NCBI GenBank assembly: GCA_900538885.1 | Contig: UQAI01000001.1 | Span: 25,862 to 89,861, forward strand | Length of the DNA stretch: 64,000 nt | Reading direction: 5' to 3' | Source: an uncultured Mollicutes bacterium | GTDB lineage: Bacteria; Bacillota_I; Bacilli_A; ML615J-28; CAG-313 | Shown here: piece by piece, positions 9,691 through 64,000 of the stretch | How the letters are laid out: the number at the start of each line of letters is the position of its first letter | How positions within the stretch are numbered: the first letter of the stretch is position 1 | Translations under genes and position numbers: made by a program | The notes under the pieces: model-generated | Seen by the model: the letters and a program-made list of their open reading frames with translations, nothing else | The model's database searches: none | What the model was told of the DNA's origin: nothing

Positions 9691-11587
9691 ACACATGGAA
9701 GCTATAGATACCCTTAAAAATGGAGAATATGAAGAAGCATATAAAAAATTCTCTAGAATATATGAGAATGATAAAAATGACTATTTGGCTTTATTTTACC
9801 GAGCAGTAACAGCATTTACGCATTTTCCAAGTAAGATAGAACAAACTATTAATGACTTTGAAAGATTAATTGCGATTAATTCTCCTTTTAAATATCAATC
9901 AATGGCATATTTAGTAATGATTTATTGCAATAATGAAGCAGAAAAAGCAATTAAGTATGCAGATGAAGCAATCAAGCACAATCCTGAATTATATATAGAC
10001 TTAAATTTTGCACTATCAAGAGCATATTTTGAATATGGTGATGATGCATCATTACGTAAATCACTTGAGTATATTGATAAGTGTATCGAAAAAGATGAAG
10101 GAGAAACTTCGGACTTTTACATCTGTAAAGTAGAAATTCTGATAACACTTGGTAAATTTGAACAAGCAGAAGAAATTCTTGATCTTGTTTATACAAAATT
10201 TGGTGGTTCTCTTAATTACTATTATTTAACCGCAAAACTTAAGATTGCAATCTACAATAAAATAAATGATGCTAGTTTCCTTGATCAAGCTCTTTCTGAT
10301 TTAGCGCTTGCTAACCAATATGAAGAAAATAATTGTAGCGTTGTTTTACTAAAGGTAGAAATTTATGCATTAAAAAAAGAAAAAGAAAAAGCTTTAAAAG
10401 AACTTGAAAAAGCAAAAGAATTTTTTGATGATGATTCTTACCTAGTTGAACAATTCAAAATATATGAAGAGTTAGGTGAAGATGACATCATAGTTAAAAT
10501 AGCTTATGAGTATTTGAAAGAACATGAGTCATGGCGTATTTACTATTCACTAGGATTCTTTCTTGCGAAAACGGCAAAAAGTCTGATTGAAATAGAAGAA
10601 TTAAAATCAGTATACTTAAAAGCATACAACTTAAACAAAGAAATATTTATTTTTGATGAAATCTATCGTCTTAATTTTATCTTATCATGTGATTATGAAA
10701 ATTTAGAATTACTAGAAGATTTAATAAAACTTCATCCTGAAGATGGTCGTTTGCGTTTTCTTTTAGGTGAAACTAAGCACCGCTTAAATTATAATTATGA
10801 TGATGTCTTAAATGAGTTTAATGCTTCATATGAACTTAAGTATTTAGATGAGTTTAAATACTTAACCTTGATAATGCCATTAACAATAGAACCTAAAAAA
10901 ACAGCAAAAAAACTAAAAAAATACCAGAAAAAGGATTTCCATCCATCTGATATTTGGCTATTACGTAAACTTGGAATAATGTATCTATATGGTGAAGATG
11001 GCTTTAAGCAAATGCCTAATTTTGCTGAATCAATTCTTGAATACTGCAATAACATAGTTACTGAAGAAGCTTGCATGAAAACTGCCCTTGGTAGAGCACA
11101 TGAACTTAATCACTCAAGTATGGCTGCCTTTAAATGTTATGAAGAAGCTTATCAGGCAGAACTTGCTGAAGCATTACCTGTTTGTAATTGTGCAAATGGT
11201 TATTTAGCTCATGCTTACATAAATGGTATTGGAACTAATGTTGATGAAGAAAAGGCTAAAAAATTAATACTTGAAGGAATATCTTTCCTAAAAGAAAAGT
11301 CTAGTAATATCGTAATATACCTTTATGCATATTTTGCCTTAAAAGGAGATAAACGATTTAGCTTAAGTACTGCACTTTCTTATTTAGAGACAAAATATCC
11401 ATTTTATCGTTATGAAATATCAAGAGCAATAATGATTAATATTATTCGTAAAAAACTTAGTTTATCAACTAAAAATAGTCAAGAATATATCAAACAATGT
11501 TTAAAACAAGGCAATAAAACAGCAAAACTTTATTATAAAGAAAATAAAAATAAAGAGTTAATTTATCCATTATTTAATAACTACTAA
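9680..11587 (+). CDS. tetratricopeptide-repeat (TPR/Sel1-like) protein
   Basis: 635 aa alpha-helical repeat protein with repeated A/Y/L-rich helical pairs; no catalytic motif. Confidence 0.55.
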   Translation: MLTKHMEAIDTLKNGEYEEAYKKFSRIYENDKNDYLALFYRAVTAFTHFPSKIEQTINDFERLIAINSPFKYQSMAYLVMIYCNNEAEKAIKYADEAIKHNPELYIDLNFALSRAYFEYGDDASLRKSLEYIDKCIEKDEGETSDFYICKVEILITLGKFEQAEEILDLVYTKFGGSLNYYYLTAKLKIAIYNKINDASFLDQALSDLALANQYEENNCSVVLLKVEIYALKKEKEKALKELEKAKEFFDDDSYLVEQFKIYEELGEDDIIVKIAYEYLKEHESWRIYYSLGFFLAKTAKSLIEIEELKSVYLKAYNLNKEIFIFDEIYRLNFILSCDYENLELLEDLIKLHPEDGRLRFLLGETKHRLNYNYDDVLNEFNASYELKYLDEFKYLTLIMPLTIEPKKTAKKLKKYQKKDFHPSDIWLLRKLGIMYLYGEDGFKQMPNFAESILEYCNNIVTEEACMKTALGRAHELNHSSMAAFKCYEEAYQAELAEALPVCNCANGYLAHAYINGIGTNVDEEKAKKLILEGISFLKEKSSNIVIYLYAYFALKGDKRFSLSTALSYLETKYPFYRYEISRAIMINIIRKKLSLSTKNSQEYIKQCLKQGNKTAKLYYKENKNKELIYPLFNNY

Positions 11588-11952: not shown

Positions 11953-12444
11953 ATGAAAGTATTAAAAAAACAATATAATAGTAAAATGTGCATTATATGT
12001 GGAATGAACAATGAAGCAGGTCTTAAGGCTCCATTTTATGAAATGGAAAATAATACAGTCGTAACCATTGTGACTTTTCGTCAAATTCATCAAAGTTATC
12101 CCGAAAGAACCCATGGGGGAATGATTTCAACATTACTTGATGAAATAATTGGTCGTGCCATTTGGATTGAAGAACCAACTTCTTGGGGTGTAACCATGGA
12201 CATTCATGTTAAATTTAGAAAACCAGTTCCTCTAGATACACAAGTAATGGCATATGGTAAGATAACGAGAAATACTTCCAAATTCTTTACAGGAGTTGGA
12301 GCCATTATGACAATGGATGGTGAAATACTTGCAGAAGGAACCGCAAACTATATTAAGTTAAAAACAAATCAAATTGCAACTACAGACATTCACGATGATG
12401 TAAATGTTTATGTTGAAGATAATGTTACCGAGATAAATATCTAG
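11953..12444 (+). CDS. PaaI/hotdog-fold acyl-CoA thioesterase
   Basis: 163 aa; hotdog-fold thioesterase pattern with HGG motif. Confidence 0.7.
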   Translation: MKVLKKQYNSKMCIICGMNNEAGLKAPFYEMENNTVVTIVTFRQIHQSYPERTHGGMISTLLDEIIGRAIWIEEPTSWGVTMDIHVKFRKPVPLDTQVMAYGKITRNTSKFFTGVGAIMTMDGEILAEGTANYIKLKTNQIATTDIHDDVNVYVEDNVTEINI

Positions 12445-12453: not shown

Positions 12454-12539
12454 GCAGCAATGGCGGAATGGTAGACGCGCTACTTTGAGGGGGTAGTATA
12501 CGAACGTATGTGTGAGTTCAAATCTCATTTGCTGCACCA
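12454..12539 (+). tRNA. tRNA-Leu (anticodon GAG), class II with long variable arm
   Basis: manual cloverleaf: acceptor GCAGCAA/TTGCTGC, 3-bp D stem, anticodon stem CTACT/GGTAG, loop TTGAGGG, variable-arm hairpin ATACG/CGTAT, T loop TTCAAAT, discriminator A + CCA. Confidence 0.85.
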
Positions 12540-12552
12540 TATTAGTAGAATA

Positions 12553-12583
12553 GGTTTGATACAATGTTATCAAGCCTTTTTTT
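12553..12583 (+). terminator. tRNA-Leu rho-independent terminator hairpin (GGTTTGATACAATGTTATCAAGCC + T7); also candidate attL core
   Basis: 9-bp imperfect palindrome plus T7; near-identical copy without T tail at 62709-62731. Confidence 0.7.
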
Positions 12584-12687
12584 GTAGTTAGAATAGGTGC
12601 GAACTCAGAAAATAAGGTTATTCTGGGTTCTTTTTTCATTTATATATAGATAGTTATTATAAGGGTATTTAGAAGCTCATAGTCATA

Positions 12688-12766
12688 CTTACACGATTAC
12701 ATCAAAGGGTGCTAAAAATTTTACACGATTTGAAGTAGGGGTGCTAACGGTTTACACGATTTGCTA
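12688..12766. repeat. about 2.5 tandem copies of a ~30-bp repeat (TTACACGATT-N8-GGGTGCTAAAAATT), repeat set A
   Basis: direct tandem repetition seen in sequence; same family at 62594-62680 and partial inverted copy at 22645-22670. Confidence 0.8.
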
Positions 12767-12850
12767 CAGAGCATACTTCGTATCAATAGACAAAATGAGA
12801 AAAAAGTGTTATAATTATTGCATAATTTATTCGTTTTCGGAGGGCATAAT

Positions 12851-13042
12851 ATGGATTACGCATCTGCTATAAAGAAATTAAGAAATAAAATGATTCTTAC
12901 ACAGACTGAATTTGCAAAAGAACTCGGTGTTTCTTTTGGAGCTGTTAATAGATGGGAGTCAGGGAAATTTAAACCTACCACTAAAACGAAAAGAAAAATA
13001 GCTGAACTATTTAAGAAATACAATATAGAAGTGGAGGATTAA
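12851..13042 (+). CDS. XRE-family helix-turn-helix transcriptional regulator (possible controller of the R-M operon)
   Basis: HTH_3 pattern TQTEFAKELGVSFGAVNRWESG; start at ATG 12851 behind GGAGGG RBS. Confidence 0.6.
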   Translation: MDYASAIKKLRNKMILTQTEFAKELGVSFGAVNRWESGKFKPTTKTKRKIAELFKKYNIEVED

Positions 13043-13045
13043 TTT

Positions 13046-16000
13046 ATGGCAAGTGGTTTTAATGAAGCAACTAGAGTTCAAATGCCTGCTCTAGTTCATT
13101 TACAAAGATTAGGCTATACATACGTCGGAAAAATAACCGAAGATCAAGCTGGTGTTGTTTATGATCCTGACACCAATATTTTAATCAAAGTCTTTAAAGA
13201 ACAATTTTGTAAGTTGAATCCTGGTCATGAAGGTGAAGCAGAACAAGTACTGAAAGATATTAGAATAGAATTGGATAATGATGATCTAGGTCGTTCATTC
13301 TTTAAAAGAATGCAAATGGTATCACCAGTAAAAATCATAGATTTTGATAATATTCAAAATAACGTATTCCACTATACTGCTGAATTTACATGCAAAAGAG
13401 ATCAAGATGAATTTAGACCTGATATTACATTATTTGTTAATGGATTACCTTTATGTTTTATAGAAGTTAAAAAGCCAAACAATAAAGGTGGATTGATCGC
13501 TGAAAGTAATAGAATGAACAATCAGAGATTTCCAAATAAGAAATTTAGAAGATTCATTAACATTACCCAACTTATGATTTTCTCGAATAATATGGAATAT
13601 GATACTCTTGGAGGAATTGTACCAGTTCAAGGTGCTTTTTATTGTACTGCTTCAAGAAATAAGTCTTTTTTCAGTTGCTTTAGAGAAGAGAATCCTGGCA
13701 ATGCCTCAGTTGCGCCATACAATAAAAATTATCCTTATGAAGAGATTGATGCTGTTGTAGAAAAGAAGATTTTATCTGATTTCAATTGCCAAGTAATTCA
13801 TACATCTCCAGAATATCAAACAAACCTAAATATCAATACACCTACAAATAGAATTTTAACTTCTATGTGCAGTAAAGAACGTCTTATGTTCTTGCTAAAA
13901 TATGGAATCGCATATGTTAAAAGTGAACGTGAAGTTGATGGTAAAATTGAGAGTACAGACCAAAAACATATTATGCGTTATCAACAGATGTTTGCTGCTT
14001 TGGCCATTAGAGAAAAATTAGATAAAGGATTGACAAGCGGTGTTGTTTGGCATACTCAAGGTAGTGGAAAAACCGCACTATCTTATCATCTTAACCATGT
14101 ATTAACTGATTACTTTGCAAAGCAAAATAAAGTAGCAAAATTTTATTTTATCGTTGATAGACTTGATTTATTAGAACAAGCTTCTCAGGAATTTGAAGCC
14201 AGAGGATTGGTTGTAAAAACTGCGAACAGTAGATCAGAATTGATGGCGCAATTTAGAACTAACCAGTCTTTAGAGGGTAATAGTGGTGCCAATGAAGTAA
14301 CTGTTGTTAATATCCAAAGGTTCGAAGAAGATAAAGAGAAAGTTACACTTCCTGATTATGCTACGAATTTACAAAGAATTTTTATAATTGACGAAGCTCA
14401 CAGAGGATATAAGCCAGAGGGTAGTTTTTTAGCTAATCTATTCGATGCTGATCCTAATTCTGTCAAAATCGCATTAACAGGTACACCTTTATTGAAGGAA
14501 GAACGTTCATCTTGGAAAGTATTCGGTACATATTACCATACATATTACTATGATAAATCGATTCAAGATGGATATACATTAAAGGTATTAAGAGAGCCTG
14601 TTGAAACATCATATAAAGAAAAATTATCTGAAATATATGAAAAATTAGAAACACTAGTTCAAAAGAAGGATGTCCAAAGAACACAAATAATTGAGCATGA
14701 TGTTTATGTTAAAGAACTTTTGAGATATATCATTTCAGATTTAAAACAGTTTAGACAAATCCAAGGTGACGATACTCTTGGAGGCATGATCATTTGTGAA
14801 ACAAGTGAGCAAGCAAGAAAATTATTCGCTTTCTTTGATAGCATTCAAAAAGAACTAAATGAGAATGCGTCGTTAAAGAGTTATTTTAAGGCTGGATTAA
14901 TATTGCATGACAGCGATGATAAAGAAACTAGAAAAAAGACTGTTACAAATTTCAAGAAGAACATGACAATCGATATTTTAATCGTATTTAATATGCTATT
15001 AACAGGCTTTGATGCTCCAAGACTTAAGAGATTATATTTTGGCAGAAAATTAAAAGATCACAATTTATTACAAGCTATTACGCGTGTGAATAGACCATAT
15101 AAAGAAAATAGATATGGTTATGTAGTTGATTTTGCTGATATTAAGAAAAATTTCGATGAGACTAACGAAGCTTATATGAAGGAATTAAACCGATTCAATG
15201 ATCCTGGCGAAGTTGGCGAAGGAAACGAGACTGACACATTCAAACAAGTTATAGAAGATAAAGACGCATTGATTCAACAGATGCAAGAGGTAAAGCAAAT
15301 TTTATTTGCTTATACAACGGATAATGCAGAGGAGTTTAGTTCTGAAATCTCTACGATTGAGGATAAAGAAGAACTTTTGAAATTGAAAAAAGCACTGGTA
15401 TCAGCTAGAGATTGTTGCAACATTGTAAGAACATTTGGTGATGATGAATTAAAAGCTAAATTTGCAGCAATGGAGATTACTAAACTTCCTTCATTAATAT
15501 CAGAAGTGCAACATCACATTGACAGCATAAATCAAAAAGAAGCATTAGCTGAAAGTGACTCAACAAAGCAATTAATTAATGAAGCAATGCAAGATATTAC
15601 TTTCAAGTTTCAAATGTTGACAGAAGAAGAAATGAAAATTATTTCAGGAGGCCAGGAGTTAGAAGATAAGTGGAAGAAGACAATTCGTTCATTTACTGAA
15701 AACGAGGACCAAGAAGATCCAGAATACATTACTTTACGTCAAGCATTTATTGAAAGATTCAAAGAACATGGTTTTGTTGTTGAAAGTGTAAGCCAATTTG
15801 AAAATTATACAAAGGAGCTAGATGAAATATTAAAGAAGCTAGCTGAATTGCAAAAGAAGAATAGTGCACTGTTGAAAAAGTACAATGGTGATGCTAAGTA
15901 TGCGCGTGTCCATAAGAGAATTAAAGAAGAAAACGAAAGCAGAAAAGCTAAAGGTGAGAAGCCACTAATTTCTGAATATGATGTCGATATTATGAATGCG

Positions 16001-16213
16001 CTAAAAATTATTAAAGATGAGATAGACCAAAAAGTTTACGATAGGCATGATATCTTGAGAAAAGATGTTTACTTTGAGCAAACAGTTATGGTACATATCA
16101 ATAATGGTATTGATAGATTAGGCTTTGAAAATACTAGGGAAGATAGATTGTTTATTCAATCAAGACTAAGCACCCAGTATTTAAATCAATACCATAATAC
16201 ATATGCAGCATAA
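13046..16213 (+). CDS. hsdR: Type I restriction enzyme R subunit (HsdR)
   Basis: HsdR N-terminal nuclease domain, SF2 helicase motifs TQGSGKT and IIDEAHRG, 1055 aa. Confidence 0.9.
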   Translation: MASGFNEATRVQMPALVHLQRLGYTYVGKITEDQAGVVYDPDTNILIKVFKEQFCKLNPGHEGEAEQVLKDIRIELDNDDLGRSFFKRMQMVSPVKIIDFDNIQNNVFHYTAEFTCKRDQDEFRPDITLFVNGLPLCFIEVKKPNNKGGLIAESNRMNNQRFPNKKFRRFINITQLMIFSNNMEYDTLGGIVPVQGAFYCTASRNKSFFSCFREENPGNASVAPYNKNYPYEEIDAVVEKKILSDFNCQVIHTSPEYQTNLNINTPTNRILTSMCSKERLMFLLKYGIAYVKSEREVDGKIESTDQKHIMRYQQMFAALAIREKLDKGLTSGVVWHTQGSGKTALSYHLNHVLTDYFAKQNKVAKFYFIVDRLDLLEQASQEFEARGLVVKTANSRSELMAQFRTNQSLEGNSGANEVTVVNIQRFEEDKEKVTLPDYATNLQRIFIIDEAHRGYKPEGSFLANLFDADPNSVKIALTGTPLLKEERSSWKVFGTYYHTYYYDKSIQDGYTLKVLREPVETSYKEKLSEIYEKLETLVQKKDVQRTQIIEHDVYVKELLRYIISDLKQFRQIQGDDTLGGMIICETSEQARKLFAFFDSIQKELNENASLKSYFKAGLILHDSDDKETRKKTVTNFKKNMTIDILIVFNMLLTGFDAPRLKRLYFGRKLKDHNLLQAITRVNRPYKENRYGYVVDFADIKKNFDETNEAYMKELNRFNDPGEVGEGNETDTFKQVIEDKDALIQQMQEVKQILFAYTTDNAEEFSSEISTIEDKEELLKLKKALVSARDCCNIVRTFGDDELKAKFAAMEITKLPSLISEVQHHIDSINQKEALAESDSTKQLINEAMQDITFKFQMLTEEEMKIISGGQELEDKWKKTIRSFTENEDQEDPEYITLRQAFIERFKEHGFVVESVSQFENYTKELDEILKKLAELQKKNSALLKKYNGDAKYARVHKRIKEENESRKAKGEKPLISEYDVDIMNALKIIKDEIDQKVYDRHDILRKDVYFEQTVMVHINNGIDRLGFENTREDRLFIQSRLSTQYLNQYHNTYAA

Positions 16214-16225
16214 GGAGAGAAATAT

Positions 16226-17848
16226 ATGAATATTAAACAAAAAACAATTGACTTAATTGATGCATTGAAAGCCACTTGTCAAACATACGGAATGGGTAAT
16301 GATGGAAATGAATATAAAATTATTACACAAGTATTTTTGTATAAGTTTTTAAATGATAAATTTGGACATGAGATTAAAGAAAAGTCAGTAAAAATTGCTA
16401 AAGCAGCTAAATGGGAAGAAGAATATGAAAGCATGAGTAATGAAGAAAGGTTGGATTTATTTGATAAGCTTTCTCCTGATATTCCTCGATTATATCCTGA
16501 ACACCTTATATCGTTTTTATGGAATCAACAAAGTAAAGGTGAATTTGACTTAATTTTCGATAGCACAATGATAGATATAGCTGAGAAGAACATTGATATC
16601 TTCTCGACTATGACAGATGAAAAAACTAGAATTCCTTTATTTGAAAAATTAACCGTATTTGTTACTGATGAAGCTAAAAGAGCGCCATTTGCACGTGCTT
16701 TAGTTGATAAATTAGCAAACTTCTCTTTTGAAGAGGCGTTTTCAGAACACTATGACTTTTTTGCAACAATTTTTGAATATTTGATTAAGGATTACAATAC
16801 AGCAGGCGGTGGAAAGTATGCTGAATATTATACTCCACACTCAATTGCTACAATTATGGCTAGACTATTAGTTGGAGAAACTGATAATTTGCATGACATA
16901 GAAGTATATGATCCATCTGCTGGCACAGGAACATTATTGATGGCTCTTGCACATAAAGTTGGTGAAGATAAGTGCACCATTTATTCTCAAGACATTTCAC
17001 AAAGAAGTAATAAGATGTTGAAATTAAATTTAATATTAAATAATTTAGTTTCATCACTTGATCATGCTATTCAAGGTGATACTTTGGTTTCACCATTTCA
17101 TAAAAATGATGATGGCACTGAGTTAAAACAATTTGACTTTGTTGTTTCTAATCCACCATTCAATATGGATTTTTCTGACACCAGAGATATAATCGCAGCA
17201 AAGACAACTAGATTCTGGGCAGGCGTTCCAAATATTCCAAAGAAAAAACTTGATGGTATGCCAATATATACATGTTTTATACAACATGTTGTTAATTCTT
17301 TAAAGAAAACTGGAAAGGCAGCTATCGTTGTACCTACGGGTTTTTTATCATCTAAAAGTGGTGTTGAAGGTACCGTTTTATCAAAATTAGTGGAAGAGAA
17401 GATAGTATATGGATGTATAAGCATGCCTTCAAACGTTTTTGCTAACACCGGAACTAATGTGTCAGTTTTATTTTTAGATGGTTCTAAATCAAGTACAGAT
17501 GTTATGCTTATAGATGCTTCAAAATTAGGTGAAGAATATAAGGAAGGAAAGAATCAAAAGAGAAGATTAAGAGATTTTGAAATTAATCAGATAGTTGATT
17601 CATTTATTAATAAAGTATCAAATGACGGCTTTTCTATTAACGTTAGTTTGGATAAGGTAAAAGAAAAGAAAAATTCATTATCAGCTGGAATGTATTTTAA
17701 AGTCAAAACTGATAATCCAACTATATCTACCTCAAAATATAATGAAATCGTCTGTGATTATATTACAGCATTGGATGAATACAAGCTAAATGCAGATAAT
17801 TTTGTTGAGTGGGCGAAAGATAGTTTATTAAAGAAGAATGATAAATAG
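16226..17848 (+). CDS. hsdM: Type I restriction-modification N6-adenine DNA methyltransferase subunit (HsdM)
   Basis: HsdM N-terminal domain, SAM motif DPSAGTGTLL, catalytic NPPF motif (VVSNPPFNMDF). Confidence 0.9.
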   Translation: MNIKQKTIDLIDALKATCQTYGMGNDGNEYKIITQVFLYKFLNDKFGHEIKEKSVKIAKAAKWEEEYESMSNEERLDLFDKLSPDIPRLYPEHLISFLWNQQSKGEFDLIFDSTMIDIAEKNIDIFSTMTDEKTRIPLFEKLTVFVTDEAKRAPFARALVDKLANFSFEEAFSEHYDFFATIFEYLIKDYNTAGGGKYAEYYTPHSIATIMARLLVGETDNLHDIEVYDPSAGTGTLLMALAHKVGEDKCTIYSQDISQRSNKMLKLNLILNNLVSSLDHAIQGDTLVSPFHKNDDGTELKQFDFVVSNPPFNMDFSDTRDIIAAKTTRFWAGVPNIPKKKLDGMPIYTCFIQHVVNSLKKTGKAAIVVPTGFLSSKSGVEGTVLSKLVEEKIVYGCISMPSNVFANTGTNVSVLFLDGSKSSTDVMLIDASKLGEEYKEGKNQKRRLRDFEINQIVDSFINKVSNDGFSINVSLDKVKEKKNSLSAGMYFKVKTDNPTISTSKYNEIVCDYITALDEYKLNADNFVEWAKDSLLKKNDK

Positions 17849-17859
17849 GAGCTGTAAAT

Positions 17860-19116
17860 ATGAAACTAAGAAATATATGTAAAATAGTTACAGACTCAAT
17901 TAATCCAAAAAAACAAAAAAATAAGCTTTTCGAGCTATATAGTTTGCCCGCTTTCGATGATTTCAAAAGGCCTGAAAATGTATATGGCTCAGATATCGAG
18001 AGCAATAAGTATTTGGTTCCAGAAAAAACAATATTGTTTAATAAATTAAATGTTAGATTCAAACGTATATGGAGGATCACCAACAATAACCAGGATAATA
18101 AAATATGCTCAACTGAGTTTCTACCAATAATTGTTGATGAAAAAATAGCCGATTTTGATTATGTTTATTTTTTATTGATGTCAGATCAAGTCACAGAATA
18201 CTTATGTGCACCAACAACTAATACTTCTGGAAGTCATAAGAGAATAGATCCAGATTTTCTACTTGATATGGAAATATCCTTGCCTGAATTAGACGAGCAA
18301 GTTCGCGTTGCAAGAAAACTAAAAACGCTAGATGATGAGGTTCAGTGTTGTTTTGATTTTGAAACTAAATCATTTAAATTTTTAAAAGATACATATGATT
18401 ACTGGTTTGTTTCTTATAACTTTCCTAACAATAATGGTGATGCATATAGTGAAAATGGTGGAACATTTGTAGAGGACAAAGAAACAGGTATTAATTATCC
18501 AACAAAATGGAGTTTTAATAAGATCGGACAGTATTTTAATGTTGTGAGAGGTGTAAGTTATAAGCCTGAAGATACTTCGGAAATAGAAACCGATATTCAT
18601 ATGCCGTTATTAAGATCAAATAATATTTACGACGAGAGATTAATACATGAAGATATAGTGTTTGTTGATAAAAAAAGGGTAAGTGAAGAACAAATATTAC
18701 ATGCAAATGATGTGTTTATTTGTATGTCTAATGGCAGTAAAAATTTAATTGGTAAAAATACAATTATTCCATATGATACAGAATATGCCTTTGGAGCTTT
18801 TTGTGCTAAAATTAAGAATATAGATTGCGATTATTTAGGCTTTATAAACTTATTCTTTAAGAGTAATTATTATAAAGCTTATATCGCACAAATATGTGCA
18901 AACACTAGTATAAATAATATCGGAAATGAAATGTTAACTGACTTAAAATATCCATTACCTCCGCTAAATATCGCTAAAAAGTTTAATGAAATATATTTAA
19001 AAGTAATGTCTGAAGTCGGGAATGCGCATAAATTTATGTTATCGACAAGAACATTATTAGAAAAACATATATTTATGGACATGAATGGAGTACTCATAAA
19101 TAGTTCAGAAGATTAA
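17860..19116 (+). CDS. hsdS: Type I restriction-modification specificity subunit (HsdS), two target-recognition domains
   Basis: 418 aa, duplicated TRD/conserved-helix architecture, immediately downstream of hsdM. Confidence 0.85.
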   Translation: MKLRNICKIVTDSINPKKQKNKLFELYSLPAFDDFKRPENVYGSDIESNKYLVPEKTILFNKLNVRFKRIWRITNNNQDNKICSTEFLPIIVDEKIADFDYVYFLLMSDQVTEYLCAPTTNTSGSHKRIDPDFLLDMEISLPELDEQVRVARKLKTLDDEVQCCFDFETKSFKFLKDTYDYWFVSYNFPNNNGDAYSENGGTFVEDKETGINYPTKWSFNKIGQYFNVVRGVSYKPEDTSEIETDIHMPLLRSNNIYDERLIHEDIVFVDKKRVSEEQILHANDVFICMSNGSKNLIGKNTIIPYDTEYAFGAFCAKIKNIDCDYLGFINLFFKSNYYKAYIAQICANTSINNIGNEMLTDLKYPLPPLNIAKKFNEIYLKVMSEVGNAHKFMLSTRTLLEKHIFMDMNGVLINSSED

Positions 19117-19156: not shown

Positions 19157-19357
19157 TTATTCTGGAATATATTCCATTATATCTTTGAAGTCACAACTAA
19201 GTGTCTTGCAAATTTTGCAAAGCACATCAGTAGTTACATTTTGACCTTTGGTCATTTTAGCAATTGAAGAGGAACTAACACCAGAGAGCTTAATAAGCTC
19301 TTTTTTGTTTAGGTTCTTATCGATTAATAATTTCCATAATTTGTTATAACTTATCAT
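19157..19357 (-). CDS. XRE/Cro-family HTH protein, last gene of the minus-strand three-component operon
   Basis: 66 aa HTH_3 (ELIKLSGVSSSSIAKMTKGQNVTTDVLCKICKTL); 1-bp gap to upstream ATPase gene. Confidence 0.55.
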   Translation of the reverse strand: MISYNKLWKLLIDKNLNKKELIKLSGVSSSSIAKMTKGQNVTTDVLCKICKTLSCDFKDIMEYIPE

Positions 19358-19358
19358 T

Positions 19359-21188: not shown

Positions 21189-21190
21189 AA

Positions 21191-21628
21191 TTATTTCTTA
21201 ACTCCTTTCGTTCTATCTTTTAATTTTTGTATCGTAATAGGCTTCATTTCATCTATGATGTTAGAAGCGAATTTTTTATATTCTATAGAGTAATCATCGT
21301 TCATTTCTGACACATATGCCTTACCAGAATCGGTAATTGCGTATATAAAACCTCTATCTGGATTGTTCGTTACAGTAGCAAGACCTCTGAATAATAGTTC
21401 TTTTAGCGAGTTCTTTATAAGCTTGCGCTGTATTGTGAACTCGTTAAGTGGAAATGAGCAGACACCGTTTAAGTTTGATTCACCAAATCCATAATGTTCA
21501 GCATATATGGCAAAGAAGTCCAGACGCGCTATTTCATCTTCGTTTAGATAACTTTGTTTATCTAAAATCATAAGAAGGCGCATAGAAACTTCAAATTCAG
21601 TATTAAAAAGCTTTGTCATTATAGCCAC
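21191..21628 (-). CDS. small alpha-helical middle component (LmuC-like) of the three-gene ATPase system
   Basis: 145 aa, overlaps upstream gene by 10 nt and sits 2 nt from ATPase gene; size and position match the middle component of ABC three-component systems. Confidence 0.4.
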   Translation of the reverse strand: MAIMTKLFNTEFEVSMRLLMILDKQSYLNEDEIARLDFFAIYAEHYGFGESNLNGVCSFPLNEFTIQRKLIKNSLKELLFRGLATVTNNPDRGFIYAITDSGKAYVSEMNDDYSIEYKKFASNIIDEMKPITIQKLKDRTKGVKK

Positions 21629-22644: not shown

Positions 22645-22670
22645 ATATAATGTAATCGTCAAATCGTGTA
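22645..22670. repeat. single inverted partial copy of the TTACACGATT repeat family (repeat set B), at the junction between defence island and prophage
   Basis: reverse complement CCTTACACGATTTGACGATTACAT matches the left end of repeat set A. Confidence 0.6.
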
Positions 22671-22974
22671 AGGCAATTAGCAGCGCAGCTAACGCCATTA
22701 TTCCTTTTGATAATTATACCAAATTCCAGGCATTTTTGCAAACCAAACAAGCTGCAAACTATGGCTGGTCTCAAATTAAAAGTTTGTGATGAGTATATTT
22801 CTTATCGTGTTAAGTAAGTTGACATAGCAGAAGATATCGCTGCGTCCCACATGTCACTTATGATACACACAATATCTGCAGAAAACTGTGGGAGTGGACT
22901 GCAACATCGAAACGGAAGTTCTAGTTTAGGACTGCCTATCTTTTGTTGCACCCAAAATTCGGTTAGCTCTGCAT

Positions 22975-23022: not shown

Positions 23023-23682
23023 ATGAGATTACTTAAGACGCCTGCAAACAAGAGATTCAGGCAAGAAGAAGATGGTACTAAGACACCAATATTCACTATC
23101 TATTTTGATAACGGTGACAAGGTCATCTACGAGCCAGGTAAGGCTACCACAGTTTATGCCAAAGGTGGTAGCTGGGTTCAAATCGAAGAAGGCATAACAG
23201 AACTAACAATCAAGCAACTCTACAACGATGAAGACAATGAGATTAAACAAAACATAAGGGATTCACATTGTGAAACTGCTGGTATGGAAAAAGAAAGACA
23301 AGCTAAAAGAGCAGAATGGGCTAAGGCGCATCCTGATGCTGATGACAGCGAAAATCCATACAACGCTACTCATAAGCTAGTCAGCTTGGACTACCAACCA
23401 TCTGAAGATTTCGATTCAGATCATTCAGAGCTAGAGCTTGAAATAGCCAAGAAGCAACAAGACGAAGAGGATAGTGGCGATGATGAAAGAGATCAATACA
23501 TAGAAATGATACGCGCATACGTAGCCACATTGCCTAAGAGTCAACAAGAGCTATATCAACTTTATTACATAGAAGGCTTAAGCCAAACGCAAATCTGTGA
23601 AAAGTTGCATCTATCGAAAAGCACCGTATCAGAACGCTGCAAGACGCTAGAACAAAAACTTTTCAAAAAATTTAAGAAATAA
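23023..23682 (+). CDS. prophage regulator with C-terminal sigma-70 region 4 HTH (ECF-sigma-like early activator)
   Basis: C-terminal LPKSQQELYQLYYIEGLSQTQICEKLHLSKSTVSERCKTLEQKL matches sigma70_r4 pattern; acidic central region. Confidence 0.5.
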   Translation: MRLLKTPANKRFRQEEDGTKTPIFTIYFDNGDKVIYEPGKATTVYAKGGSWVQIEEGITELTIKQLYNDEDNEIKQNIRDSHCETAGMEKERQAKRAEWAKAHPDADDSENPYNATHKLVSLDYQPSEDFDSDHSELELEIAKKQQDEEDSGDDERDQYIEMIRAYVATLPKSQQELYQLYYIEGLSQTQICEKLHLSKSTVSERCKTLEQKLFKKFKK

Positions 23683-34072: not shown

Positions 34073-34120
34073 ATCGCCTTTAGAGTGATATATACATAGC
34101 ACAGAAGGAGGTTTATAAAT

Positions 34121-34542: not shown

Positions 34543-34669
34543 AGTTTATATATCAAAGATATATAAAAATAGTTAAAAAATATACACAAAATGACTTGCT
34601 ATTATGTCCTTTTAGAGTGATATATATACACGACGAAGGGAAGAAAAAACCTTCAAGGAGGACAAAGAA

Positions 34670-57339: not shown

Positions 57340-57380
57340 CCCGAACTTTTGACACGATTTTCGGTCCTTAGACTTGAGGA
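57340..57380 (+). promoter_or_regulatory. ECF-sigma-type promoter-like element CCGAACTT-N16-TCCTTAGACTTGAGGA (copy 2)
   Basis: about 35/42 identity to 23691-23732; spacer contains TTGACACGATTT also found in the junction repeat family. Confidence 0.4.
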
Positions 57381-57391
57381 GGTATGAACCT

Positions 57392-57634
57392 ATGAATTTA
57401 AAAGAACAAATAAGAACCTTAAGTCAAAAGGGTTATGGCTATAAGAAGATAGCTAAAGAATTGAACATTTCAATTGGATCAGTAAGAAACGCTTTAGTTG
57501 AGACACCAAGCGATGAGGTGTGCAAGAACTGCGGAAAGAAGCTAAAGTTTGTTGTTGGTAAGAAAAAGAAGACATTCTGCTGTGATAGCTGTAGATACGA
57601 TTACTGGAACAAACAAAGAAGGGGTGGCAAGTAA
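57392..57634 (+). CDS. small HTH plus C4 zinc-ribbon DNA-binding protein preceding the recombinase pair (possible regulator or directionality factor)
   Basis: YGYKKIAKELNISIGSVRNAL HTH and CKNCGKK...CCDSC; GGAGG RBS. Confidence 0.45.
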   Translation: MNLKEQIRTLSQKGYGYKKIAKELNISIGSVRNALVETPSDEVCKNCGKKLKFVVGKKKKTFCCDSCRYDYWNKQRRGGK

Positions 57635-57635
57635 T

Positions 57636-57851
57636 ATGACTCCTTTGGAAAGATATATGGCTTCAGTTAAGGTTCTTGAGAAGATGGTTAAGGAAGGCTT
57701 GATTGATGAAAAAGAGTACATGAAAGTCGAATCGTTCCTAGCTAAAAAACACTGTATCAAACCTGACAGCATTTACCGTTCAAATCACTTGCTATTTCAG
57801 AGAAATAGAGTGATAGATAGTAATGCAAAAAAGGAGGCAAATAATGGATAG
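57636..57851 (+). CDS. small protein with SHOCT-like C-terminal motif
   Basis: 72 aa; GLIDEKEYMKVESFLAKK resembles the SHOCT motif. Confidence 0.3.
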   Translation: MTPLERYMASVKVLEKMVKEGLIDEKEYMKVESFLAKKHCIKPDSIYRSNHLLFQRNRVIDSNAKKEANNG

Positions 57852-59187
57852 AAACATAATCAAAATTGATGCAGAAAAGCAATTGAAATCCAGAATTAGG
57901 GTTTGCGCTTATGCTCGTGTTTCAAGAGATAAGGATGCGATGTTTCAATCGCTGTCAGCTCAGGTTAGCCATTACAACAAGATGATTAACAGCAACCCAG
58001 AATGGCAGTTCAAGGGAGTCTATGCGGATTATGCATTTTCAGGAACAAAGGAAGATAGACCGGAATTCCAAAAGATGCTGGAAGCCTGCAAAGCTGGTGA
58101 GATTGATTTAATTATCACAAAATCAATTTCAAGGTTCGCCAGAAACACAGAAACAGTGCTTAAAGTAGTTAGGGAATTAAAGGCTAGGGATGTAGATGTT
58201 TACTTCGAGGAACAAAAGATCCATACGATATCATCGGATGGTGAGTTCATGCTTAGCGTGCTTGCTGCTTATTACCAAGAGGAAGCCAGGTCGGTTTCAG
58301 AAAATATGAAATGGCGAATTAAGAAAGATTTCAGTCAAGGCATCATGTGGGGTGGCAAAGATAACTACGGTTACAAATATGACATCGATAAGAAGACGTT
58401 CATTGTAGTTCCTGAAGAGGCTGCTGTAGTTAAGCGAATCTTCGAACTATACATTGCTGGAGCAGGATTTCAAAAGATATCCAGCATCCTGAACTTGGAA
58501 GGCATAAAACCAATGACTGCAAATGAGTGGAGCAAGAATAACGTGACAGCCGTCATAAGCAACTCAAACTACACAGGCGACCTAATCCTTCAGAAGACAT
58601 ACCGCAAGGATTACCTATCAAAGAAAAAATGCAAGAACAACGGTGAGCTTCAGAAATACCTTGTCGAAGAGAACCATGAGCCAATAATCACTAAAGAGAT
58701 GTTTGAAAAGGCACAGAAAATCAGAAATGAGAGAATTATGAAGTATGACATTAAAACCAGAAAGGCAAAGAATAACTACCCTTTCACAGGCATTCTTAGA
58801 TGCGGATGCTGCGGTGGAGCATATCATCACAAGACGACAAGGTACAACTTAATCTGGATTTGCAGAACCTACAACACCAAAGGGAAAGGCTTCTGCTCAA
58901 GAAGCAAGCAAATAGATGAACGCAAGCTTTATGATGCGATTAACCAATACTTCGGTTGGGATAAGTTCAAACAAGATAAGTTCCTAGAGAAGGTTGAGAA
59001 GATTATAGCTAATCCAGGGAATGAGCTAGAGATTCACCTTAAGGATGGAACGGTTGACAAAATCTATTGGAATGACAGAAGCCGAAGCGAGGCATGGACT
59101 GATGATATGAAATCTAAAGCTAGAGCTAAGGCATTTAAACAAAACGAATTAAGAGGAGGGAACAACAGATGGCAAAAGTCAAAGTAA
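57844..59187 (+). CDS. large serine recombinase (CcrA-like size)
   Basis: N-terminal resolvase domain with catalytic-serine region VCAYARVSRD, recombinase domain, C-terminal Cys-rich zinc ribbon; about 448 aa. Confidence 0.8.
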   Translation: MDRNIIKIDAEKQLKSRIRVCAYARVSRDKDAMFQSLSAQVSHYNKMINSNPEWQFKGVYADYAFSGTKEDRPEFQKMLEACKAGEIDLIITKSISRFARNTETVLKVVRELKARDVDVYFEEQKIHTISSDGEFMLSVLAAYYQEEARSVSENMKWRIKKDFSQGIMWGGKDNYGYKYDIDKKTFIVVPEEAAVVKRIFELYIAGAGFQKISSILNLEGIKPMTANEWSKNNVTAVISNSNYTGDLILQKTYRKDYLSKKKCKNNGELQKYLVEENHEPIITKEMFEKAQKIRNERIMKYDIKTRKAKNNYPFTGILRCGCCGGAYHHKTTRYNLIWICRTYNTKGKGFCSRSKQIDERKLYDAINQYFGWDKFKQDKFLEKVEKIIANPGNELEIHLKDGTVDKIYWNDRSRSEAWTDDMKSKARAKAFKQNELRGGNNRWQKSK

Positions 59188-60740
59188 TACCACAAACGAT
59201 AAATCCGATGACAATGTCAGTTATTGGCTCAACTCAAAAAAGAAAAGTTGCTGCTTATGCCAGAGTAAGCACCGAGAATGAAGAACAACAATCATCATAT
59301 GAAGCACAGGTCAAATACTACACTGAGCATATAGCAACCAGACCAGACTGGGAATTCGTGAAGGTGTATTCTGATGAAGGTATATCAGGAACCAACACAA
59401 AAAGAAGAGTTGGCTTTAGATCGATGATACAGGATGCAGTTGATGGGAAGATTGACCTAATTCTAACCAAATCAATATCGAGATTTGCCAGAAACACCTT
59501 AGACAGCATATCCTACATTAGACAATTGAAAGCTGCTGGAACTGAGGTCTATTTTGAAAAGGAAAATTTATGGACATTCGATTCAAAGTCTGAAATGGTG
59601 CTGTCTATGCTTAGTGCTATTGCTCAAGAGGAAAGCCGAAGCATCTCAGAGAACGTTAAGATGGGCAAGAGATGGCAAATGAAGGAAGGAAAGGTTACAA
59701 TTCCTTGTAAGGCGTTCTTAGGATACCAAAATATAGATGGTAAGATTACGATTGATAAGGATGAGGCAATCATCGTTAGAAGAATTTACTCAATGTTCTT
59801 AAAGGACGGTATGACAAGAAAGGCTATAGCAGATACTCTGAAGGCTGAGGGAATTCCTACTCCATCAAAGAAAGGCTGCAACTGGACCGTCAACAACATT
59901 CAGTCGATACTCACCAACGAGAAGTACAAAGGCGATGCATTGCTACAAAAGGTCTATTGCGACGATTATCTTGAGCACAAGGTAAAGAAGAACAACGGTG
60001 TGTTACCTCAATATTACGTTGAGAATTCGCATCCTGGAATCATCAACAAAGAAGAATGGACAATGGTTCAGGAGGAGCTTAAGAGAAGAGAAGGCATCAG
60101 ATACTCATACCAAACAAGCAATCCTTATTTAGCAAAGCTTAGATGCTCGGAATGCGGACACTTCTTCGGAATCAAGGTATGGCATTCCAACTCAATCCAC
60201 AGAAAAGAGGTATTGCAATGCAACGGCAAATACAAATGCGGATGCAAGTCACCTAATCTTAGCCAAGATGAAGTCAACAGGAAGTTCATAGAAGCCTACA
60301 ACCAAGTGATGGACAACAAGAAAGGCTTGATAGAAGACACCAAAGAGGTCATAGAAATGCTAACCTCAACTGAGAAAATAGACGCGAAGGTACAAGCATT
60401 AACGAATGAGATGGAGGAGGTTCAGCTATTGGTAGAGAACCTAATTCACGACAATGCCAGAAGGAACCAAGACCAAGAAGAGTACGAAAGACACTATCAA
60501 GAGTTGGTAAGTCAATTCAATGCAGCTAAAGCTAAAATGAAATCCTTGCTAGAGGAAAAACAATCCAAACTAGACAGGATTGAAATACTTAATGCTTTCA
60601 TTGTTTCCTTAGAAGATAAAGAAGCCGTCATAGATGAATTCTCAACTGATCTATGGAACTTAATGATTCAAGATGCATTAGTCAGCGAGGATGGAACAAT
60701 TAAGTTTGTATTCAAGAATGGAACAGAAATTACAATGTAA
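59169..60740 (+). CDS. large serine recombinase (CcrB-like size), overlapping the upstream recombinase gene by 19 nt
   Basis: AAYARVSTENEEQQSS catalytic region, recombinase domain, zinc ribbon CSECG...C, C-terminal coiled coil; 523 aa. Confidence 0.8.
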   Translation: MAKVKVIPQTINPMTMSVIGSTQKRKVAAYARVSTENEEQQSSYEAQVKYYTEHIATRPDWEFVKVYSDEGISGTNTKRRVGFRSMIQDAVDGKIDLILTKSISRFARNTLDSISYIRQLKAAGTEVYFEKENLWTFDSKSEMVLSMLSAIAQEESRSISENVKMGKRWQMKEGKVTIPCKAFLGYQNIDGKITIDKDEAIIVRRIYSMFLKDGMTRKAIADTLKAEGIPTPSKKGCNWTVNNIQSILTNEKYKGDALLQKVYCDDYLEHKVKKNNGVLPQYYVENSHPGIINKEEWTMVQEELKRREGIRYSYQTSNPYLAKLRCSECGHFFGIKVWHSNSIHRKEVLQCNGKYKCGCKSPNLSQDEVNRKFIEAYNQVMDNKKGLIEDTKEVIEMLTSTEKIDAKVQALTNEMEEVQLLVENLIHDNARRNQDQEEYERHYQELVSQFNAAKAKMKSLLEEKQSKLDRIEILNAFIVSLEDKEAVIDEFSTDLWNLMIQDALVSEDGTIKFVFKNGTEITM

Positions 60741-62593: not shown

Positions 62594-62680
62594 GGGTGCT
62601 AAAAGTTGACACGATTTGAAGCAAGGGTGCTAAAAATTTTACACGATTTAAAAGTAGGGGTGCTAAAATTGTATTAAAAC
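62594..62680. repeat. about 2.5 tandem copies of the ~30-bp GGGGTGCTAAAA-TTGACACGATTTGAAG repeat (set C)
   Basis: same family and orientation as 12688-12766. Confidence 0.8.
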
Positions 62681-62708
62681 ATTTCTACTTTGACATAAGA
62701 AAAGCAAA

Positions 62709-62731
62709 GGTTTGATACAAGTATCAAGCCC
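62709..62731. mobile_element. attR-like duplicate of the tRNA-Leu terminator hairpin (GGTTTGATACAAGTATCAAGCCC), right boundary of the ~50-kb accessory segment
   Basis: 22/24 identity to 12553-12576; flanks diverge on both sides. Confidence 0.55.
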
Positions 62732-62793
62732 GTTAGGGATAAAATTCCCGTATAAAAATAGCGTAGTTACAAACAGGTTAATTCCTGAATGTG

Positions 62794-64000
62794 CTACGCT
62801 TTTTCATTTGGCAAGTCGACTTTGCCGATACCATTATAGAAGATATCGATTCTCATTTGTCTATGGCCATCAACTTTCTCAGCCTTATGAACGATAACCT
62901 TCTCTATGAATTCTCGTGCTATTTCATGAGTAAGCTCATCAATTCTTGTGTATTTTTGGACTAGTTCCATGAAATGGGAAGTAGATGCTGTTTGCTCATT
63001 AATGGCTTTGATTTTGCCTTCTAACTCAGCAATCTTTTCTTTTAGAGAAGTTTGCTCCTGCTCATAATTCTCATTCATCTTTTTGAATCTATCTTCAGAG
63101 ACAATACCTGATATTTTATCCTCATAAAGGTTTTGGATGATTGAATCAAGTTTCTCGATTCTGGCTTTTGATGCGTTTAGCTCCTTATTGAGAAGATTAA
63201 GTGATTTCGTGATATTCGCTGTCGACTCACTGGACACAAGCTTTATGAATTCATCCTCGTGTTCCTTTGCAAACTCAATATGACGCTTGATATCTTCAAG
63301 GACGATTTCATCGATAATCTTAATTCTTATTTGATGAGCTGAGCACAATCCTTGTCTCTTACGGTAAGTAGAACAACAATAATAATATGATTCTGGTTGA
63401 AGTGATTTAGTTCTGCAAACATATAGTTTCTTGCCACAGTCCGCACAATATATCATTCCAGATAGAACAGGCATTTCACCCATTGGTGTATTAGCCCTTT
63501 TTCTACCTTCCTTTAGCCTTTGCACTATGTCAAATGTCTCTTGATCGATAATAGCTTCATGAGTGTCCTTGATAATTACCCATTTTGAAGGTGGGTTAAT
63601 AAAGGACTTTTTGTTTTTGTAGGACTTTCTGCCAGTTTTGAAATTAACCGTATGGCCTAAGTATTCTTGCCTTGATAGGATATCTGAAACGACTGACCAA
63701 TCCCACCAATAAGGGTCTATGTTGTCCTTGCTATGGGTGTTAGGTATTCCTTTAGCATTCTTGTAAGAAGTAACATTAAGCACCTTTCTATCAGTTAAGA
63801 TTGTCGCAATCTTAGATGGCCCATTTCCTTGTACTGCTAAGCGGAATATCTCTTTAACAACCTCGGCAGCCTCTTCATCGATAAGCCAGTTGTATTTGTT
63901 GTTAGGGTCTTTCTTATAGCCGAACACTGGAATAGGAGCGGTAGGTTTTCCTGAATCACTCTTAGCTTTGATAACGGCTCTAATCTTCTTTGAGGTATCT
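62794..64000 (-). CDS. large serine recombinase, N-terminal part beyond window edge
   Basis: recombinase domain plus zinc-ribbon (CADCGKK...C) and C-terminal coiled coil; reading frame remains open to position 64000. Confidence 0.8.
   Translation of the reverse strand, partial: DTSKKIRAVIKAKSDSGKPTAPIPVFGYKKDPNNKYNWLIDEEAAEVVKEIFRLAVQGNGPSKIATILTDRKVLNVTSYKNAKGIPNTHSKDNIDPYWWDWSVVSDILSRQEYLGHTVNFKTGRKSYKNKKSFINPPSKWVIIKDTHEAIIDQETFDIVQRLKEGRKRANTPMGEMPVLSGMIYCADCGKKLYVCRTKSLQPESYYYCCSTYRKRQGLCSAHQIRIKIIDEIVLEDIKRHIEFAKEHEDEFIKLVSSESTANITKSLNLLNKELNASKARIEKLDSIIQNLYEDKISGIVSEDRFKKMNENYEQEQTSLKEKIAELEGKIKAINEQTASTSHFMELVQKYTRIDELTHEIAREFIEKVIVHKAEKVDGHRQMRIDIFYNGIGKVDLPNEKA

Follow-up and report, generated by a model that had tools for sequence, protein, structure and literature searches.

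What do short tandem repeats do when the same family lies at two distant points of one stretch of DNA? The question is raised by a 64,000-nucleotide stretch from an uncultured Mollicutes bacterium (GenBank assembly GCA_900538885.1, contig UQAI01000001.1, positions 25,862 to 89,861; hereafter the window), in which an initial annotation had noticed 2.5 tandem units in the same orientation at each of two sites and had assigned them to the ends of a mobile element. Both arrays lie where that annotation placed them, and the repeats form modules just inside the ends of a single integrative element of 50,156 bp (12541-62696), inserted at the CCA end of a tRNA-Leu(GAG) gene. We propose, with middling confidence, that the short boxes making up the repeats are helically phased accessory binding sites for recombination, and we predict that they are bound by protein. 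We describe the arrays and the boundaries of the element, then the recurrence of the same layout in other genomes, and then weigh this proposal against its rivals.

Box arrays inside the two ends of one integrative element

Each repeat unit (~32 bp, with a period of 31-33 nt) combines a B box (TTTACACGATTT) with an A box (GGGTGCTAAAA), and the consensus of the boxes in the window is T(T/G)ACACGATT(T/A) for B and GGGTGCTAA for A. The left array (12688-12762) and the right array (62594-62668) are both on the forward strand and both comprise 2.5 units, in the order B-A-B-A-B on the left and A-B-A-B-A on the right. A 44-nt stretch common to the two arrays is 86% identical, and Tandem Repeats Finder reports the right array with a period of 32, 2.5 copies and a score of 107. 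In these interleaved arrays the distance from B start to A start is 16-18 nt and that from A start to B start 13-16 nt, so that the boxes near each end form direct repeats in helical phase (31-33 nt when interleaved; 20 nt in arrays with a single box type). Within the window we find 8 matches to TTACACGATTT, allowing at most one mismatch, vs 1.96 expected, and 6 matches to GGGTGCTAAAA vs 0.87 expected; because neither count was reached in any of 100 shuffles, chance is rejected as the origin of the arrays.

The boundaries of the element were derived from nine assemblies of the same species, gathered via the thioesterase gene at 11953-12444. In all nine strains the flank is identical up to ...TTTGCTGCACCAT (ending ...GCTGCACCAT, CACCAT), and from the next base onward there are six different islands. 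Writing each junction with a caret, the comparison gives CACCAT^ATTAG on the left, GACAT^AAGAA on the right and CACCAT^AAGAA for the pre-existing site, with CATA as the common sequence. The right junction of the window (GACAT^AAGAAAAGCAAAGG, or at greater length GACAT^AAGAAAAGCAAAGGTTTGATACAAG) is at the same time the left end of another island, and three of the strains (L126, L122 and L127; loci are cited here by such numbers) carry CACCAT^AAGAAAAGCA(A/T)AGGTTTGATACAAA, the same island start as that found after the tail in the window. This implies that the element went in between the tRNA gene and an older island. Neither a duplicated 3' tRNA segment nor a long direct repeat of the target is present at the junctions and, judging from these alignments, insertion requires at most the 4 bp of identity in CATA.

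The two termini are related to each other as an inverted repeat: 12544-12568 and the reverse complement of 62665-62689 are identical at 20 of 25 positions, a score attained by none of 2000 shuffles and none of 2000 random pairs of windows. The ends of the element are thus short half-sites with dyad symmetry, and where a right tail directly meets a left (P') half-site, as in L017, L066 and L129, the junction is a dyad of ~52 bp. Only one left terminal motif (from 12541) and only one right tail (62669-62696) occur in the window, and we therefore treat 12541-62696 as a single element. In the initial annotation the hairpins at 12552-12577 and 62709-62734 had been taken for the attachment (att) copies, with the arrays ~110 nt (left) and about 30-40 nt (right) inside them. 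Those distances are correct; the left hairpin is the half-site of the element itself together with a terminator, and the right one belongs to the left end of the next island. Hairpins as crossover sites are also ruled out by the unrelated terminators that follow the tail in L021, L046, L092 and L099, and by the strain comparison, which puts the crossover at CCA^T. The arrangement of two hairpins inside the left end recurs in L017, L040, L066, L075 and L079.

Two smaller sites had been counted as members of the repeat family. The first, an inverted partial unit at 22645-22670, does exist and is inverted, and it consists of an exact TTACACGATTT at 22661-22671 (reverse strand) followed by a degenerate second B box (GACGATTACAT); there is no A box in it, which makes it a doublet of B boxes and not a full unit. 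A search of the window for terminus motifs found no terminal half-site or other terminus feature near it, and the picture of three module junctions or nested elements gives way to that of one left and one right terminus. The doublet looks like the double-B end of left arrays such as those of L007, L020 and L028, and its sequence suggests that it is probably a relic of a left module. The second site is a B-like 12-mer in the spacer of a promoter-like element (57348-57360). The 12-mer TTGACACGATTT is present, at 57349-57360; it is missing from the homologous promoters, upstream of the homologous helix-turn-helix (HTH) gene, of three related phages (L006, L007 and L009), and this lack of conservation rules it out as a regulatory site. 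We therefore treat it as outside the family and, from the comparison with these phages, probably a product of chance.

The same layout at other tRNA and tmRNA genes

We scanned one genome per species with the pattern A-B-A, which returned 100 stretches, nearly all of them from Acholeplasmataceae, Anaeroplasma, Izemoplasmatales, Mariniplasma, 'Tenericutes/Mollicutes' and metagenome-assembled genomes (MAGs) of unclassified Bacilli. When viral contigs were scanned, seven had true tandem arrays, and these often lay where the contig ended. The complete genomes matched (CP017948.1, CP076021.1, OY775910.1 and OW818673.1) carry 1-3 arrays each, always at islands linked to a tRNA or a transfer-messenger RNA (tmRNA) gene. 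The genome-wide search that the initial annotation had suggested thus finds the motif confined to islands and not dispersed. With so few arrays per complete genome, and with the arrays of the window only at the ends of the element, a dispersed repeat of the kind of repetitive extragenic palindromes (REP) or bacterial interspersed mosaic elements (BIME) is excluded.

Two-box repeats of this kind bound well over 100 related islands and small gene cassettes of wall-less bacteria from the gut and from the environment. About 100 loci in Acholeplasma-like, Anaeroplasma-like and Izemoplasma-like genomes have the same layout as the window. First comes the tRNA or tmRNA gene, then the terminal half-site with terminators after it; the left boxes lie ~150 nt inside and precede the promoter and the cargo, and the right boxes are followed by a terminal segment of 28 nt. 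Put into a common orientation, the arrays fall into two classes, those that run from A to A (n = 58 in the genome loci) and those that run from B to B (n = 44). In 51 of the 58 A-to-A arrays a tail of 27-28 nt comes after the array at a constant offset of 9-11 nt and, counting distinct arrays that end in A, the last A box starts 9-11 nt before TTGTAT in 56 of 70. The tail has the consensus TTGTATTAAA(A/C)C-N6-AC(C/T)TT(A/T)GACA(T/G) and is kept in about 55 loci, and the sequences part right after it (...ACAT). B-to-B arrays lie 140-190 nt 3' of the CCA of a tRNA or tmRNA gene (Ser, Gly, Leu-CAA, Leu-GAG, Pro, Trp and tmRNA). The DNA between this CCA and the array opens with N6-TAGAAYAGG-GGTYTGATAC, a hairpin and a T run, and the terminal hairpin motif was found upstream of 32 of the 37 left arrays with enough flank. 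Downstream of the left arrays many loci have a TGnTAnAAT promoter and cargo genes, at a variable distance (about 20-100 nt).

The sequence of the boxes varies between islands and their position is fixed. At the same tRNA gene as in the window, five other islands with unrelated boxes have their first box 141-148 nt from the left end, and L123 has it at 193 nt; the corresponding value for the first box core of the window is 151, and 16 other loci have their first box 150-171 nt from the end. The boxes of these other islands at this tRNA are ACGGAACGA three times, AGCACGAA four times, AATCGTTAAA, or B alone four times, and the distance from boxes to promoter is 53-82 nt. Similar variation is seen at the right ends, where GGGTACGAA, GGGGTGTAA, GGGTGCGCAA, GGGTGTTTCA and GGTGTACGCA stand in threes directly before the TTGTATYAA tail. 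In a set of 20 diverse modules the box cores are invariant and the spacers drift. The replicon of Tenericutes bacterium MO-XQ has one right module made of A boxes only and one left module made of B boxes only, each with a 20-nt period, indicating that the A type is the right-arm motif and the B type the left-arm motif. Across lineages the left boxes read ..ACGAT and the right boxes GGGTG..AA, and the lineage of the window interleaves both at both ends.

The cargo of these loci includes type I restriction-modification systems, AlbA_2/Schlafen-like proteins, a CadA-type ATPase, a MerA-like protein, ABC transporters and prophages. Complete units without a recombinase, 1.3-4 kb in length and consisting of a left module, 1-3 genes and a right module, are stacked head to tail in L066, L067, L020, L038, L070 and L126, and in most array-bearing loci there is no recombinase within 8 kb.

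We also observed miniature modules of ~200 bp that have no cargo (L018, L043, L063, L090, L111, L113, and CP017949.1 at 70600-70800). They consist of a half-site-like hairpin (GGACTGTATAGGGTAAATACAACAGTC), ...CCCTTTGTTAAGCCATAATTTAGG, a right array and the tail, and some are in tandem, resembling miniature inverted-repeat transposable elements. In a further set of loci (L001, L029, L041, L059, L064, L069, L089 and L104) a single module recurs with nearly identical DNA around its right end; it starts with a CadA-type ATPase, and the right array and tail come next, followed by a reverse-complemented 3' tRNA fragment, a fragment of a serine recombinase gene and a MerA-like gene. The hosts are MAGs labelled Acholeplasmataceae, Bacillota and Phytoplasma sp., Mycoplasmatota strain zrk7, Acholeplasma equifetale and a viral contig, a distribution that suggests recent horizontal spread of this module. 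Five of its loci (L001, L041, L059, L089 and L104) have serine recombinase fragments of 127 aa after the right tail, in the same position as the third large serine recombinase of the window (see below).

Comparison of the right end with a phage collection by blastn gave no match, and the same search of a plasmid collection gave one, the 93-kb replicon of MO-XQ (CP017949.1, L117-L119). This replicon has annotations for pyruvate kinase, ClpB, PNPase and AdhE, a prophage with an HTH-SHOCT-LSR1-LSR2 module like that described below, and a second pair of serine recombinases beside tRNA-Cys. From these contents it looks more like a secondary chromosome or a piece of an assembly than a plasmid. The ends of the MO-XQ prophage could not be located.

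Proposed accessory recombination sites and rival readings

The only recombinases encoded in and beside the element are large serine recombinases (LSRs). LSR1 (57823-59187) and LSR2 (59169-60740) have Resolvase, Recombinase and zinc-ribbon Pfam domains and are assigned to phrog_95 ('integrase') in PHROGs; 3' of them are a SymE-like gene and two unknown open reading frames (ORFs), the second of which ends at the first A box. Pfam detected no Phage_integrase domain among the end-proximal ORFs of the window that were scanned, and a regular expression for the tyrosine recombinase signature (R..HxxR..Y) had no match in the ORFs of the ~107 array-bearing loci. The short crossover identity, the dyad-symmetric ends and the absence of a duplicated tRNA segment together fit a serine recombinase and not a tyrosine integrase. 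Homologues of the HTH-SHOCT-LSR1-LSR2 module are found in the viral contigs L003, L006, L007 and L009 and also in CP017949.1, and a single serine recombinase homologue is found in L001. The module is a few kb upstream of a standard right array in L001, L003, L006 and L009, and in L007 it lies upstream of a variant right module.

The initial annotation had regarded the repeats as resembling accessory sites for a DNA-binding protein, and this part of it agrees with the conservation of primary sequence, the helical phase and the fixed place of the boxes relative to the termini. It agrees also with the lack of RNA structure: RNAalifold on 20 right modules gave -4.3 kcal/mol with 0 compensatory pairs, and Rfam had no match apart from the tRNA, so that a structured RNA is ruled out by the absence of a consensus structure, of covariation and of a family match. 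In the mechanism that we propose, the boxes would bind one or more lineage-specific proteins, either an accessory or directionality factor or the serine recombinases themselves, and the bound protein would assemble a nucleoprotein complex on both arms beside a simple LSR crossover site. Such a complex would mark attP, attL and attR as distinct from the bare tRNA target, could bring together the two ends belonging to one element where islands that share core sites stand in a tandem row, and could let cassettes without a recombinase move in trans.

Several points weigh against this proposal. No box-reading protein was identified, and the HTH and SHOCT genes beside the LSRs have no assigned function. 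That these two LSRs act on the ends of the element is a supposition. Most array loci have no recombinase close by, so that action in trans has to be assumed. The left boxes are ~150 nt from the crossover, past two terminators and upstream of a promoter, a position from which a purely regulatory role is conceivable. The junctions predicted for an excised element are ...CATTTCTACTTTGACAT^ATTAGTAGAATAGGTTTGATAC... in the circle and ...GCTGCACCAT^AAGAAAAGCAAAGG... at the restored site, and one metagenome scan for the circular junction between the tail and the P' half-site of the window element returned tandem island junctions only. To our knowledge, the large serine integrases characterised so far use simple att sites of ~40-50 bp and no accessory DNA sites. 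The directionality factors of these integrases bind the enzyme and are not known to bind DNA.

The strongest of the rivals, which we nevertheless judge unlikely, is control of transcription unrelated to recombination, in which an island or host regulator would use the left boxes as operators or activator sites and the right boxes as a roadblock, or as an insulator, at the island's 3' end. In its favour, a strong TGnTAnAAT promoter and a first gene follow the left arrays in most loci, this first gene often encodes an XRE-type HTH protein, and the doublet at 22645-22671 lies between a promoter-like site (TGGTATAAT) and the ABC-3C operon. However, the distance from boxes to promoter varies (about 20-100 nt overall, 53-82 nt at one tRNA) and it is the distance from boxes to the end that is conserved, while the right boxes keep a fixed register with the terminal half-site and are retained in miniature modules that have no cargo to regulate. 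Many left arrays are followed by genes that are not regulators, and the recognition helix of the HTH protein does not change with the type of box. The last observation bears also on the HTH protein at 12851, which the initial annotation had listed as a candidate binder: its helix is the same in islands with B/A boxes, with B boxes only and with ACGGAACGA boxes, and it is therefore rejected as the reader. Identity among the LSR, HTH and SHOCT proteins of different phages was likewise discarded as a pointer to the reader, since it tracks the box type but equally tracks overall relatedness. Tandem sigma-70 promoters (TTTACA ... TGcTAAAAT) are excluded, as the spacer would be 19 nt and a promoter scan does not call the boxes.

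We consider it less probable still that the boxes serve the element after excision, as iterons or as a signal for packaging or partition, recognised by a replication initiator, by a ParR/ParB-like protein or by the terminase of a helper phage, with the cassettes behaving like satellites. Three to five direct repeats with a 20-nt (two-turn) period beside AT-rich DNA do recall iteron origins, in a circle the two arrays would flank a single region of about 200 bp, and box sequences specific to a lineage would suit a helper-specific signal. Yet in the cassettes the arrays have no linked gene for Rep, Par or a terminase, the terminase genes of the prophage are about 25 kb away, and the strict register between the last right box and the half-site is left unexplained. 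Among the ORF families recurrently found beside arrays there was no Rep-like family.

The leading idea of the initial annotation, that the boxes are arm-type sites of a recombinase, taken as the intasome of a lambda-like tyrosine integrase, now appears very improbable. Repeated sites along each arm, in an element that sits at a tRNA gene, do follow the classic layout of lambda attP. Against this, the element encodes no tyrosine recombinase, the array-bearing loci show no signature of one and only LSRs, the identity at the junctions is just CATA, and no 3' tRNA segment is duplicated. The tyrosine recombinase gene that we did encounter (Phage_integrase; L122 and L127, at about 9776-10849) belongs to another island at the same tRNA gene and lies between two hsdS genes, and by this position it appears to be part of a phase-variable shufflon for type I specificity, unrelated to the island ends.

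That the repeats are functionless, whether as slippage or duplication products of the terminal recombinase site or as a generic intergenic repeat, has hardly any chance of being right: to the eye, a spacer taken together with its A box (AGTAGGGGTGCTAAAAT) bears a loose resemblance to the left half-site AGTAGAATAGGTTTGATACAAT, but the box cores stay invariant in 20 diverse modules as the spacers drift, their positions are conserved across lineages with unrelated boxes, and complete genomes have only 1-3 arrays. The initial annotation was right to set aside clustered regularly interspaced short palindromic repeats (CRISPR), as only a few nt separate the boxes, in place of unique spacers of at least 25 nt, and no cas gene occurs among the ORFs scanned.

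The element, its neighbours and known systems

Table 1. Positions of the boxes, termini, junctions and gene modules in the window.
Feature	Position	Strand	Remarks
tRNA-Leu(GAG)	12454..12539	+	ARAGORN and Rfam; CCA end serves as target for insertion (B arm of the attachment site)
Left junction CAT^A	12538..12541	+	Element begins at 12541; same CATA at right junction
Left terminal inverted repeat (P' half-site) AGTAGAATAGGTTTGATACAATGTT	12544..12568	+	
Hairpin and T run	12552..12584	+	Terminator scan, 10 pairs; element-supplied tRNA terminator; overlaps P' half-site
Second hairpin and T run (GAACTCAGAA...TTCTGGGTTC TTTTTT)	12602..12636	+	By sequence reading
Left box array	12688..12762	+	First box 148 nt inside left end
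Left-array B boxes	12689-12699, 12721-12731, 12752-12762	+	
Left-array A boxes	12707-12717, 12739-12747	+	
First-cargo promoter TAGACA-17-TGtTATAAT	12787..12815	+	11/12 consensus positions and TG extension
Cargo: XRE-type HTH gene and type I restriction-modification (hsdR, hsdM, hsdS)	12851..19116	+	Pfam
B-box doublet TTACACGATTTGACGATTACAT	22645..22671	-	Upstream of ABC-3C operon
Recombination module: small HTH (57374), SHOCT-domain gene (57549), two LSRs	57374..60740	+	
Right box array	62594..62668	+	Begins at stop codon of ORF 62096-62593; abuts terminal segment
Right-array A boxes	62594-62604, 62625-62635, 62658-62668	+	
Right-array B boxes	62607-62617, 62639-62649	+	
Right terminal segment (P half-site) TTGTATTAAAACATTTCTACTTTGACAT	62669..62696	+	Inverted repeat proper is 62665-62689
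Left end of next, older island (AAGAAAAGCAAAGGTTTGATACAAG... hairpin)	62697..62734	+	
Third LSR (Recombinase, zinc ribbon, DUF4368)	62794..64000	-	Pfam; neighbouring island

Between its ends (Table 1) the element carries, after the restriction-modification genes and convergent with them, an ABC-3C defence operon (19157-22581, reverse strand) that encodes MC2 and CTD6 domain proteins, a 609-aa AAA-like protein and a Cro/C1-type HTH protein. The G+C content of this operon is 0.30-0.33 vs 0.37-0.41 for the adjacent prophage, which lies downstream of it. Two late ORFs of the prophage (49997-52288 and 54106-56784) contain tracts of 9-nt collagen-like (Gly-X-Y) repeats (50722-50980 and 54246-54323), and we take both as putative tail-fibre genes. 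The second ORF (892 aa) is flanked by two copies, 92% identical, of a terminator-like hairpin (CCCTCAATCCTTAATTGGAAAGAGGGG and a T run; 53958-53994 and 56803-56839), and this pair may delimit a part of the tail-fibre region that can be exchanged as a module. Upstream of two gene blocks before the terminase region there is a 53-nt direct repeat (34057-34109 and 34589-34641, 74% identity; AAATGACTTG...TTTAGAGTGATATATA), whose copies may be late promoters of the phage read by the sigma-like protein at 23023-23682.

Beyond the right end, the frame of the third LSR is open to the edge of the window (ORF 62797-63999) and the N-terminal part of the protein lies outside it. Pairs of serine recombinases on the reverse strand adjoin the same tRNA gene in L124 and L128. 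Across strains (L120-L128), the 3' end of tRNA-Leu(GAG), at 12540/12541, is a hypervariable hot spot for islands in this gut species. Of the six islands, two are type I restriction-modification systems; the others are a restriction-modification system of Dcm plus LlaJI type, a replication module like that of a phage, a pair of serine recombinases accompanied by a DUF3987 primase, and one small cassette.

Repeated protein sites near a crossover are familiar from several systems. The arms of lambda attP and the tandem Xis/Cox sites place them on both arms, so that they are present in attP, attL and attR and not in attB, with three to four of them in tandem on one arm, immediately next to the core. 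In contrast to that arrangement, catalysis here is not by a tyrosine recombinase, identity in the overlap does not exceed 4 bp and the boxes have a period of 20-32 nt. The res sites of the Sin, beta and Tn3 resolvases combine a crossover with adjacent accessory sites, and site II of Sin consists of direct repeats that impose selectivity on synapsis; these are small resolvases working on two identical res sites in one molecule, whereas here the two ends differ and the reactions would be integration and excision at a tRNA gene. Plasmid iterons share with the boxes the number of direct repeats (three to five) and the two-turn period, but here no initiator gene is linked and the arrays are divided, with one at each end of an integrated element.

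Among serine recombinases, dimers of the IS1535 transposase (IS607 family) bind to four directly repeated subterminal motifs of 9 bp in helical phase and capture the other end (PMC6188088). The likeness lies in a serine recombinase system with short, direct, phased subterminal motifs, which in IS1535 are bound cooperatively and pair the ends. The differences are that the TnpA of IS607 is small, with an N-terminal DNA-binding domain and almost no target specificity, and the LSRs here have 450-520 aa and a specific target; the boxes here measure 9-12 bp, are spaced by 20 or 32 nt and reach ~100 nt (right end) or ~220 nt (left end). A small transposase of the IS607 type is excluded for the islands themselves, in which we found only LSRs of at least 440 aa or fragments, and insertion always at the CCA end of a tRNA or tmRNA gene.

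Islands of CcrB-like serine recombinases stack in tandem at tmRNA, some of them without a recombination module (PMC3146451). With such CcrAB-type islands, including the cassette chromosome mec of staphylococci (SCCmec), the Enterococcus cassette chromosome and the Dehalococcoides ssrA islands (PMC3146451, PMC6222049), the islands described here share paired LSRs, site-specific insertion at the 3' end of one conserved gene, tandem accretion with some islands free of a recombinase, and cargo for restriction-modification, metal resistance and defence. They differ in the target, which here is the CCA end of many tRNAs and of tmRNA and not rlmH or one ssrA site, in producing no direct repeat of 15-20 bp, and in the phased box arrays inside both ends, of which we found no description for CcrAB-type islands. 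IS1535 is the nearest precedent among serine recombinases, and the CcrB-like ssrA islands of Dehalococcoides and the cassette chromosomes are the nearest for the biology of the islands. Subterminal accessory repeats of site-specific integrative elements are known, and their attachment to LSR ends at tRNA genes appears to be new; the searchable literature yielded no description of such box arrays, and the motif strings matched only unrelated primer and miRNA sequences.

Going further, and only tentatively, we raise the possibility that wall-less Bacillota (Acholeplasma-, Anaeroplasma-, Izemoplasma- and RF39-like) operate a cassette system of an integron-like kind at their tRNA and tmRNA genes. 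Such a system would combine an LSR crossover with lineage-specific arrays acting as an 'end-code', and a putative reader of this code would pair the ends within tandem rows and mobilise recombinase-free defence and resistance cassettes in trans. If true, accessory DNA sites would here, for the first time, be seen to govern the reaction of a large serine recombinase. The prevailing view of LSRs, also in their engineering, is of enzymes for which short att sites suffice and which take their direction from protein-protein contacts, and phased arrays in a fixed register with the att half-sites of a widespread natural family of elements, kept even by cassettes without a recombinase, would imply an additional control at the level of DNA over end pairing, direction or mobilisation in trans. 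The finding accounts for the presence of a different defence island at one tRNA locus in almost every strain, and the two-box motif together with the 28-nt tail provides a signature for finding such islands in the poorly studied genomes of Mollicutes-like bacteria.

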